Below, piece after piece: positions 53,028 through 54,008 of a DNA stretch of 57,538 nt (within the stretch, counting starts at the first letter, position 1; the number at the start of each line of letters is the position of its first letter). The translations under genes were made by a program, and so were the position numbers. The notes beneath the pieces were generated by a model that saw nothing but the letters and a program-made list of their open reading frames with translations, had not been told where the DNA came from and did no database searches. The DNA comes from Chlamydiota bacterium. Its GTDB lineage: Bacteria > Chlamydiota > Chlamydiia > Chlamydiales > SM23-39. The DNA lies in NCBI GenBank assembly GCA_050049995.1, contig JASFVE010000001.1, forward strand, positions 1 to 57,538, written 5' to 3'.

Positions 53028-54008
53028 ATGACATCTATGAGTACAGCTTTAATTATAAAGCCAAATTATATTGATAAAGCATTTAATGATGGCTTCTACC
53101 AAAAAACAGTAACTTCCTTACAAGAGCAGGGTATACGCGTTATTCAAGAAACAGCTGATTCTGCTGAAGCCGTCAACAGAATAATTAGTCTTTGGCAAGA
53201 CAACCCTGTACAGTATTTATTTGTTATGGGTCATGGCGATGGAGATAGCGTTATGATAACTTCTTCTGAAGATTTTTCTGTAAAAAATATTAATGTTGAA
53301 GTATGGAAAAAAGCAGTTGCACAAGATGGAACGATAGCTTATTTTTCTTGTAATGATGGCAAAGCAGGTGGTCTTGCTCAAGAAACTAGTAAGTTAATTC
53401 ATAATGTTCATACTGTAGGATCCCGCATAGTCTTATTTACTGACAAAGTTCTAATAACTCAAGAGGGTTTGCGATTTTTTCACTGGGATGGTAAAAACTT
53501 TCTTGATGTTACAGCATCTTATTTAAATGGTGTTAACCAATTACCTGAAGCTGACTTTTCTGATATGGTTTTCCAAACTGCCTTTGAAAGCAGAATAAAT
53601 GCTAATAAAAGAAGGATCAATCCAGATCAGTTACAACAGTTAGCATTTAGAGCTAAAGTTATGGATGGAGTAAAAGCCGACTTAGAAAGATTGCAAGTTC
53701 AACCAAAGGAAGAAGAATCAGCTCCTATAGAAGAGCTTTCTGATTATAGTAGTAATGAGGAAGGATACAGCAGTGGTGAAGAGTTTGGAGCAAGACCTGC
53801 TCTGCAAAGAAAAGGAAAAGATTTCGATCTTACTGTAGAGGCTATAACTGAAAAAAGACTTAGATCCAAAAGACCTGCTCTGCAAAGAAGAGAAGCAGAT
53901 TTTGACCTTGTTGCGCCAGCTGCAAAACCAGCGGAATCAAATGAAAAGTCAAAAAAACCTGGTATTTTTAACAGGGTATTTGGTGGTAGAAAGAAAGCTA
54001 AAGCTTAA
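53028..54008 (+). CDS. hypothetical protein: N-terminal clan-CD-like His/Cys domain, acidic Ser-rich linker, duplicated RPALQR..DFDL motif, basic tail
   Basis: 326 aa. YLFVMGHGDGD ... TIAYFSCNDGKAGG are hydrophobic strands ending in GHG and C about 38 residues apart. It also has EELSDYSSNEEGYSSGEEFG, two copies of RPALQR[KR]..DFDL 26 aa apart, and a KKPGIFNRVFGGRKKAKA tail. Confidence 0.7.
   Translation: MTSMSTALIIKPNYIDKAFNDGFYQKTVTSLQEQGIRVIQETADSAEAVNRIISLWQDNPVQYLFVMGHGDGDSVMITSSEDFSVKNINVEVWKKAVAQDGTIAYFSCNDGKAGGLAQETSKLIHNVHTVGSRIVLFTDKVLITQEGLRFFHWDGKNFLDVTASYLNGVNQLPEADFSDMVFQTAFESRINANKRRINPDQLQQLAFRAKVMDGVKADLERLQVQPKEEESAPIEELSDYSSNEEGYSSGEEFGARPALQRKGKDFDLTVEAITEKRLRSKRPALQRREADFDLVAPAAKPAESNEKSKKPGIFNRVFGGRKKAKA
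53793..53889 (+). repeat. 19-bp exact direct repeat 78 bp apart inside CDS (duplicated peptide motif)
   Basis: AGACCTGCTCTGCAAAGAA occurs at 53793-53811 and 53871-53889. The flanking codons are also similar (RPALQRKGKDFDL / RPALQRREADFDL). Confidence 0.9.

Follow-up and report, generated by a model that had tools for sequence, protein, structure and literature searches.

The subject of this analysis is a gene of an uncultured environmental chlamydia, here termed the target, which lies on contig JASFVE010000001.1 (assembly GCA_050049995.1) and was studied in the context of a 57,538-nt stretch of that contig (the window). The target protein includes: (i) an N-terminal alpha/beta domain of about 170 residues, which is best explained, judging by its predicted structure, as a clan CD (caspase/hemoglobinase-fold) domain with a putative His/Cys dyad, (ii) a predicted helical linker, and (iii) a tail, residues ~226 to 326, which is unstructured in the AlphaFold model and carries short, host-like motifs (Table 1). 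The rest of the window is ordinary chromosomal core, with a GC content of about 35%, and encodes RecD2, MetRS, PNPase, FtsH, TilS, LigA, GlgB, MiaB/RimO-type enzymes, HflX, Ffh, RF1, TrmD, TGT, citrate synthase and malate dehydrogenase. The window DNA is present in a wetland metagenome, and its TGT protein is 65-73% identical to the TGT of three Chlamydiae metagenome-assembled genomes. Members of the Chlamydiae are obligate intracellular symbionts of eukaryotes, and the host organism of the target should be one as well.

The target is a real gene, and the features described for it in an earlier first-pass annotation, made from the letters of the window, are present. The reading frame has 326 codons and contains all of the strings quoted for it. 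The frame is kept at a syntenic locus (L001) that encodes an ortholog (P0002), conservation between the two loci covers the promoter and ribosome-binding site as well as the start codon and terminator, and the overall ratio of nonsynonymous to synonymous divergence (dN/dS; Nei-Gojobori estimates, window vs L001) is 0.58; thus, the frame is considered to be a gene. The consensus-like promoter proposed by the annotation is real, and the equivalent site of L001 shares its architecture (TTGACT-17-TACAAT with TG). The ribosome-binding site string GGAGATAAAT is identical in the window and L001. The bidirectional terminator is also real and forms a hairpin of -19.5 kcal/mol (z -6.1) that is flanked by an A-run on the 5' side and a T-run on the 3' side, so that it can terminate both the target and the convergent TPR gene. 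This hairpin is unflagged by a terminator consensus scan of the window; its L001 counterpart is conserved and is flagged on both strands. As had been described, the target converges on an array of TPR paralogs, which occupy positions 54087-57531 on the minus strand.

Table 1. Coordinates of the target gene, its expression signals and the segments of its product (positions in the window)
Feature	Coordinates	Strand	Description
Sigma-70-like promoter	52964..52992	+	TTGACA-17-AATACT, extended TG; 10/12 consensus positions
Shine-Dalgarno GGAG	53017..53020	+	7 nt upstream of ATG; read from sequence
Target coding sequence	53028..54008	+	Open reading frame (ORF) list; 326 amino acids and stop; syntenic ortholog P0002 has 333 amino acids
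N-terminal alpha/beta domain, residues 1 to ~170	53028..53537	+	Clan CD, DUF4347/C80-like putative cysteine protease
His69 codon (in GHG), putative catalytic His	53232..53234	+	Invariant in both orthologs; aligns with the SHG His of DUF4347
Cys108 codon (in FSC), putative catalytic Cys	53349..53351	+	Invariant in both orthologs; aligns with the invariant YGC Cys of DUF4347
Helical linker, residues ~174-225	53547..53702	+	Helices predicted at 174-192 and 199-221 (single-sequence model) and 179-197 (alignment-based model, A4)
Acidic Ser/Tyr cluster EELSDYSSNEEGYSSGEEFG, residues 235-254	53730..53789	+	Conserved GYSSGEE unit; two S-x-x-E sites; phospho-FFAT-like core
Repeat copy 1, (R)PALQRKGKDFDL	53792..53831	+	Repeat search; ALQR+..[DE]FD[LF] conserved in P0002
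Repeat copy 2, (R)PALQRREADFDL	53870..53909	+	Repeat search; 85% identity to copy 1 over 40 nt
Basic-hydrophobic C-terminus EKSKKPGIFNRVFGGRKKAKA	53943..54005	+	KK.GIF..[VL]F..KKAKA conserved in P0002
Bidirectional intrinsic terminator hairpin	54031..54075	.	Inverted repeat, 90% complementary; common to the convergent TPR gene

The putative catalytic residues of the N-terminal domain reside in YLFVMGHGDGD (residues 63-73) and TIAYFSCNDGKAGG (residues 102-115), followed by VHTVGSRIVLFTD (residues 127-139). Cys108 is the sole cysteine of both the target and P0002. The first-pass annotation likened this order and spacing to the dyad context of clan CD peptidases, in particular the self-processing cysteine protease domain (CPD) of MARTX and large clostridial toxins. 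Of its residue assignments, Cys108 and the gap of 38 residues that separates the dyad are as described, while the histidine is His69 and not His70; neither residue differs between the target and P0002.

Family searches relate the target to a single Pfam family, DUF4347 (PF14252). This family is the only Pfam match of the target, and a weak one (E 0.007, 16.6 bits, residues 24-112) and is found independently with P0002 across the His-Cys core (E 0.003, 17.7 bits). DUF4347 domains were gathered with a consensus query, which retrieved 534 proteins; among the matches listed, 120 of 120 carry PF14252. In an alignment of 59 diverse members (A3), the Cys of the YGC motif is invariant, the His of the SHG motif is nearly invariant and a Trp is conserved. 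A profile of the two orthologs compared to A3 by hhalign scores 32.0 (E 2.7e-4) and pairs His69 with the His, Trp93 with the Trp and Cys108 with the Cys, a column placement common to the hmmsearch, hhalign and MAFFT alignments. Control scores are lower: 200 column shuffles average 14.1 and peak at 25.8, 200 shuffles of 10-column blocks average 18.5 and reach 29.0 at most, and the reversed profile scores 10.0. As the real score exceeds all 400 shuffles, the relationship of the target to DUF4347 is real but remote; the similarity is statistically supported.

DUF4347 in turn connects the target to the toxin proteases. The A3 profile matches chain G of PDB entry 9qpe, listed as 'DUF4347 domain-containing protein', and the His/Cys columns of the family correspond to His186 and Cys240 of this protein (Tce1, 9qpe_G), as counted along the alignment. 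Tce1 is described in a 2026 paper as a putative cysteine protease with an inferred TcdB-CPD-like fold, in which His186/Cys240 superpose on the TcdB CPD dyad (PMC13323088). Thus, a transitive chain leads from His69/Cys108 of the target, by way of the DUF4347 His/Cys columns and Tce1 His186/Cys240, to the catalytic dyad of TcdB. Over half of the DUF4347 domains (34 of 59) also weakly match Peptidase_C80 (best E 3e-4), and no other family recurs. The kinship to toxin CPDs proposed by the first-pass annotation is retained in a remote form, through the link of DUF4347 to Peptidase_C80, and not as a direct relationship. In a separate observation, the DUF4347 profile aligns over 166 positions (E 0.05) with residues 284-457 of PDB 11xu_A1 (human ECT2L, RhoGEF-like); this alignment suggests that a eukaryotic protein contains a domain similar to DUF4347.

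Structure prediction supports a fold of the clan CD type that bears a His/Cys dyad. A single-sequence AlphaFold model is poor (pLDDT 40.6) and displays a strand-helix-strand-helix-strand order over residues 6-98. When provided with an alignment of target residues 1-200, P0002 and the 59 DUF4347 domains (A4), AlphaFold returns a model of residues 1-200 with a pLDDT of 83.7 and a pTM of 0.79; the order of strands and helices over residues 1-98 agrees between the two models. The first half of the A4 model is composed of a strand (6-12), helix (21-33), strand (37-43), helix (46-54) and strand (61-67) that leads into His69-Gly70. The second half continues with a small hairpin, helix (90-96) and strand (97-106) that leads to Cys108, then a helix (116-123) and strand (128-132), and ends in four short strands and a long helix. 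The two strand-like segments that had been noted to end in GHG and in Cys are, thus, matched by modeled strands 61-67 and 97-106. Foldseek comparison of the model to the PDB ranks, in order, SAVED-CHAT (8tl0, E 6e-5), CED-3, caspase-11, caspase-7, the GPI transamidase subunit PIGK and MALT1, and the clan CD matches (8tl0, 4m9r, 6ns7, 8dgz, 7wld and 3uo8) have probabilities of 0.99-1.0 and TM-scores of about 0.39-0.46. Clan CD peptidases make up 10 of the 11 best matches; the remaining one, at rank 9, is a KaiC domain. The caspase/hemoglobinase-type fold predicted for the first ~170 residues is, thus, recovered at the level of the clan; strict membership in C80 or DUF4347 is unsupported, as the Pfam scores are below cutoff and C80 is not matched.

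An alternative, which is considered unlikely, is that the N-terminal domain is a generic three-layer alpha/beta fold or a pseudo-protease, with the His and Cys being structural or coincidental and the protein serving as a scaffold to display the tail motifs. A number of observations weigh in this direction and against a divergent protease. The DUF4347 gathering cutoff of 24.6 bits is reached by neither ortholog, and the curated Pfam protease families (C80, C13, C14 and CHAT), to which the first-pass annotation had looked, are matched by neither (for Peptidase_C80, PF11713, at E up to 10). The hhalign probability for A3 is only 41%. The C-terminal signature of DUF4347, TGAxxAAS..TG..GGDW.LE (with A143, G149, G155 and W157 invariant in A3), is not kept; the target instead carries VGSRIVLFTDKVLITQEGLRFFHW, in which only two Gly positions are retained and the Trp is replaced by Phe. 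The conservation of the His and Cys is attested by two sequences only. The TM-scores are modest (~0.45), KaiC-type alpha/beta folds occur further down the Foldseek list at lower probability, and no toxin CPD is among the top 50 matches. The confident model relies on an alignment seeded and dominated by DUF4347, such that its fold is not independent of the assumed homology, and the geometry of the dyad is read from secondary-structure positions only. Furthermore, the DUF4347 protein Tce1 is non-toxic in yeast (PMC13323088). What speaks against a mere scaffold is that the sole Cys and the GHG His survive the replacement of 58% of the sequence, fall exactly on the dyad columns of DUF4347 and Tce1, and belong to an alignment that outscores every shuffle, with clan CD peptidases dominating the best structural matches.

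If the domain is a protease, its activation may differ from that of the toxin CPDs. Shigella OspB, a C80-like effector, reportedly needs inositol hexakisphosphate (InsP6). The N-terminal domain of the target is net acidic (15 K+R vs 23 D+E), and conserved basic residues are restricted to K11, R51, K95, R133 and K140; thus, a basic InsP6 activation pocket of the C80 CPD type appears doubtful from the sequence. The model strands in residues 140-166 are a possible flap. The more specific idea of the first-pass annotation, autoprocessing or activation by InsP6 or the host, is neither backed nor contradicted by the analysis.

The linker and tail separate into a fast-evolving and a conserved part. 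The helical linker is the fastest-evolving segment of the protein, and about half of the protein is disordered. Within the tail, the acidic Ser/Tyr cluster, the Lys/Arg-rich C-terminal end and two copies of RPALQR(K/R)..DFDL, 26 residues apart (residues 256-268 and 282-294), are found as the first-pass annotation had listed them, apart from the exact DNA core of the repeat, which is 20 nt and not 19. At the DNA level, the repeat is 40 nt long with 85% identity, has a spacing of 78 nt and includes the exact 20-nt core AAGACCTGCTCTGCAAAGAA, which suggests recent conversion between the two ALQR copies. Both orthologs have NE(E/D)GYSSGEE, with a second copy in P0002 of the form EEYSSGEEF, and ALQR(K/R/E)..(D/E/S)FD(L/F) occurs twice in each. 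The two alleles differ in how these units are assembled: P0002 has two complete [YSSGEE...ALQR..FD(L/F)] units (L001 10845-10906 vs window 53871-53909), and the window allele has one complete unit and one that is missing the YSSGEE part.

The GYSSGEE units are hypothesized to be CK2 sites and phospho-FFAT-like (a pair of phenylalanines within an acidic tract) cores. Both serines of YSSGEE reside in an S-x-x-E context, the CK2 motif cited for the Chlamydia tether IncV (PMC9286742). Published criteria for phospho-FFAT motifs are F/Y at position 2, D/E or S/T at position 4, a small residue at position 5 and an acidic residue at position 7, preceded by an acidic or phosphorylatable tract (PMC7705450, PMC9286742). 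The string x-Y-S-S-G-E-E follows an acidic/Ser tract and fits this core, as its aromatic Tyr, second Ser, small Gly and last, acidic Glu occupy positions 2, 4, 5 and 7. The candidate sites are YSSNEE-GYSSGEE in the target, and SNSNED-GYSSGEE and SESDEE-EYSSGEE in P0002. A scan with an FFAT-like pattern, which was self-defined after the motif was seen and stands in place of the published position weight matrix (PMC7705450), gives one match in the target tail, two in the P0002 tail and one background match in the 16,945 residues of the long ORFs of the window.

Other parts of the tail are open to more than one use. The C-terminus may serve as a polybasic-hydrophobic membrane-binding element or, alternatively, resemble a bipartite nuclear localization signal (KK, 10 residues, RKKAK). 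The conserved A-L-Q-R units are a speculative candidate for an autoprocessing site. Clathrin box, AP-2 and GAE ear motifs, an LC3-interacting region and an IQ motif were sought by eye and set aside, as was a C80-type Leu-small cleavage site at PAL-Q; none of these is conserved in both orthologs or both repeat copies.

The target family is limited to two members, the target and P0002, among ~15 billion proteins. P0002 (phmmer E 8e-34, 37-42% identity) was detected by an exhaustive phmmer search of 1.84 billion representatives, in which the additional hits (P0003-P0005) are repetitive false positives. A word-indexed search of 5.8 billion clusters recovers only the target itself, a word-indexed profile search with the pair alignment finds nothing beyond the two orthologs, and the tail has no homolog outside of this pair in the word-indexed searches. 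Scans of genome contigs yield no relative, and scans of metagenome contigs yield only the P0002 allele again (L007). Other chlamydial loci (L004-L006) are without an ortholog, with synteny that stops at the contig end or is broken. Sequencing runs yield the source wetland metagenome and identical fragments at low depth, and nothing else; they contain no further alleles and no RNA data. A single 12-bit NCBIfam match to the target is meaningless, and the hedgehog, PGRP and ubiquitin hits of PDB sequence searches (with the protein and with the two-sequence profile) are chance matches.

Divergence of the two alleles is confined to the coding sequence. L001 is fully syntenic with the window over the S9 peptidase, EamA, TspO, DUF378, YtxH, DUF948, target and two TPR genes. 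At the protein level, eleven left-hand genes are 91-100% identical between the loci, compared to 37-42% for the target and 72% and 62% for the two right-hand TPR genes. At the DNA level, identity is 89-99% up to position 52,800 and drops to 42-67% exactly across the target coding sequence; it recovers to 88% at the terminator, and the TPR genes remain at 70-84%. Conservation of the region upstream of the target amounts to 89% and takes in the -35 and -10 elements, GGAGATAAAT and the ATG, and divergence begins directly after the start codon. The flanking genes have dN of 0.001-0.05, dS of 0.10-0.49 and dN/dS of 0.004-0.24; by contrast, the target as a whole has a dN of 0.51 and dS of 0.88, such that its protein evolves at least 10x faster than that of any left-hand neighbor. 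Within the target, dN/dS is 0.39 for the core (residues 60-150) and 0.93 for the linker (residues 191-235, 29% identity). The best conserved part is the tail (residues 236-326), with 55% identity and a dS (0.45) similar to background. For the N-terminal domain, dS is ~1.1, above the flank range of 0.1-0.5, which leaves room for the import of an old allele by recombination; this less simple scenario would require breakpoints at both ends of the coding sequence. Accelerated protein evolution in place is the simpler reading, since conservation of the promoter, start and terminator reaches as far as the coding sequence and the dS of the tail is at background level.

The three convergent TPR paralogs share an N-terminal motif of ~30 residues (..PTE[VI]FN[LI]IDDFA...GFLP.[IV]S[HQ]L..); compared to the ortholog locus, their identities are 72%, 62% and about 33%. 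With these identities falling rightward and the left-hand genes at 91-100%, divergence rises on the right-hand side of the target. A contig of low depth from the source wetland metagenome (run X1) joins position 54084 to 55744 with 18 extra letters; this junction may represent a population variant in which the first TPR gene is missing together with part of the second.

The pattern of divergence bears on two further explanations of the target. It is very unlikely that the target is an orphan gene in decay or without function, evolving under relaxed constraint, in which divergence reflects loss of function and not an arms race. The linker dN/dS of 0.93, the overall value of 0.58 and the disorder of half of the protein would fit such decay; yet, both alleles have intact frames of similar length (326 and 333 residues), the expression signals are conserved, the dN/dS of the core is 0.39 and the motif blocks are kept. 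Rapid divergence with an intact frame and conserved signals is instead the behavior expected of a host-interaction protein, and in the Chlamydiae such rapid evolution is typical of secreted proteins.

This tendency of secreted proteins also counts against a location within the bacterium, where the target would act as a regulatory or stress protease or adaptor and its host-like motifs would be a coincidence of low complexity. The dN of 0.51, set against 0.001-0.05 for the housekeeping neighbors, the orphan-like distribution, and the conservation and duplication of motifs in an otherwise disordered tail make this explanation distinctly improbable. It draws on the left-hand neighbors, which are small membrane or stress-type genes (DUF948, YtxH, DUF378 and TspO), and on the lack of a secretion apparatus or chaperone gene nearby. 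Delivery to the host is further disfavored in that no type III secretion genes are present in the window, and no bilobed hydrophobic domain of the Inc type (~40-60 residues) is found in the translation, nor such a helix in either model. The only hint at a type III signal is compositional: the N-terminus of the target is rich in Ser/Thr, and acidic residues are absent from its first 15 positions.

Compared to known systems, the target is closest in sequence to the DUF4347 proteins. These include the Pseudomonas aeruginosa type VI secretion system (T6SS) effectors Tce1 (PA0256, PDB 9QPE) and Tce2 (PA2372), which share with the target a strand-(S/G)HG..W..strand-(G/S)C core and are small stand-alone proteins delivered by a secretion system; the target is likewise small and stand-alone and is presumed to be delivered. 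The His-Cys spacing is 39 residues in the target compared to 43 in DUF4347 and 54 in Tce1. Unlike the DUF4347 effectors, the target scores below cutoff, is without the AAS..TG..GGDW.LE half, has a unique motif-bearing tail and is from the Chlamydiae, with no T6SS context. The Peptidase C80 domains of MARTX and Clostridioides difficile TcdA/TcdB are InsP6-activated, self-cleaving (after Leu) and part of giant toxins, whereas the target is not part of a giant toxin, has no direct Pfam match to C80, and has an acidic N-terminal domain with few conserved basic residues. Shigella OspB is a type III effector and C80-like cysteine protease, according to Wood et al. 2022 as cited in PMC13323088. OspB represents the same concept as proposed for the target, a small secreted CPD-like protease that acts on host proteins; however, no sequence similarity is detected between the two, and OspB is without a comparable tail. 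The CHAT proteases, caspases, paracaspases and PIGK are the best structural matches of the target model, but at a TM-score of ~0.45 and with no sequence match; the target is smaller (~170 residues) and, in comparison to CHAT proteases and caspases, has no p20/p10 organization and no SAVED/TPR partner domain.

For the tail, the nearest parallel is IncV of Chlamydia trachomatis, which mimics FFAT and phospho-FFAT motifs and has serine tracts phosphorylated by CK2 (PMC9286742). The two proteins are alike in having a disordered C-terminal region, adjacent Ser residues in S-x-x-E contexts and an aromatic-x-S/T-small-x-acidic core after an acidic/Ser tract. By contrast to IncV, the target has no bilobed hydrophobic domain, is not homologous and has Gly at motif position 5; VAP binding by the target is hypothetical. 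Thus, the target is of a kind already known, as stand-alone CPD-like effectors (OspB, Tce1 and Tce2) are described and clan CD folds are widespread. What is new is that the protein falls short of each family's curated cutoff, bears a tail without a counterpart elsewhere and shows striking divergence that is confined to its coding sequence.

Taken together, we give roughly even weight for and against the explanation that the target is a host-directed chlamydial protein, in which host-mimicking motifs in the tail position or regulate a cysteine-protease domain of clan CD that is DUF4347/C80-like but very divergent. The target is most likely a modular protein that an environmental chlamydia would deliver into the eukaryotic host cell. 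His69 and Cys108, each located where a strand of the predicted central sheet has its C-terminal end, would form the His/Cys dyad for catalysis. The helical linker leads to the disordered tail, in which GYSSGEE, ALQR(K/R)..(D/E)FD(L/F) and the basic-hydrophobic C-terminus may be recognized by the machinery of the host, via phosphorylation and via docking to one of its proteins or membranes, thus positioning the protease domain. The protease domain would then cut a host substrate or the target protein itself. In a more specific version, which we regard as rather improbable, host CK2 phosphorylates the tail of the secreted clan CD protease to generate tandem phospho-FFAT-like docking sites for VAP, a resident of the ER, the C-terminus binds a second membrane or directs import to the nucleus, the protease is placed at a membrane contact site, and the divergence reflects an arms race with protist hosts.

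Other parts of the window have unusual features as well. At 50795-51789 (minus strand), two DUF378 paralogs (71 and 70 residues, ~40% identical) flank a 162-residue membrane ORF without a Pfam match; this block is followed by YtxH, a 107-residue ORF of unknown type and DUF948, all of which are 91-99% conserved in L001. Two plus-strand ORFs among the housekeeping genes, of 210 residues (7416-8048) and 247 residues (14097-14840), have no Pfam match at E 1e-5. FtsH (21805-24555, minus strand) has 916 residues, with ~450 residues before the AAA domain that form an unusually long N-terminal extension.

Stand-alone C80/DUF4347 CPD-like proteases are recognized as secreted effectors only recently, in Shigella (OspB) and Pseudomonas (Tce1/Tce2), and, to our knowledge, this class is not described in the Chlamydiae. 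If the proposed explanation is true, a chlamydial representative would extend the effector class to obligate intracellular symbionts of protists. It would also provide a clan CD scaffold that is divergent and, at ~170 residues and with only one cysteine, very small. The two alleles are a natural experiment: with ~60% of the sequence replaced, little more than the dyad and the short motifs of the tail has remained, and their survival points directly at functional residues. The divergence confined to the coding sequence, beside a TPR array that is itself diverging, marks a hotspot of host interaction in an otherwise conserved region of the chromosome.

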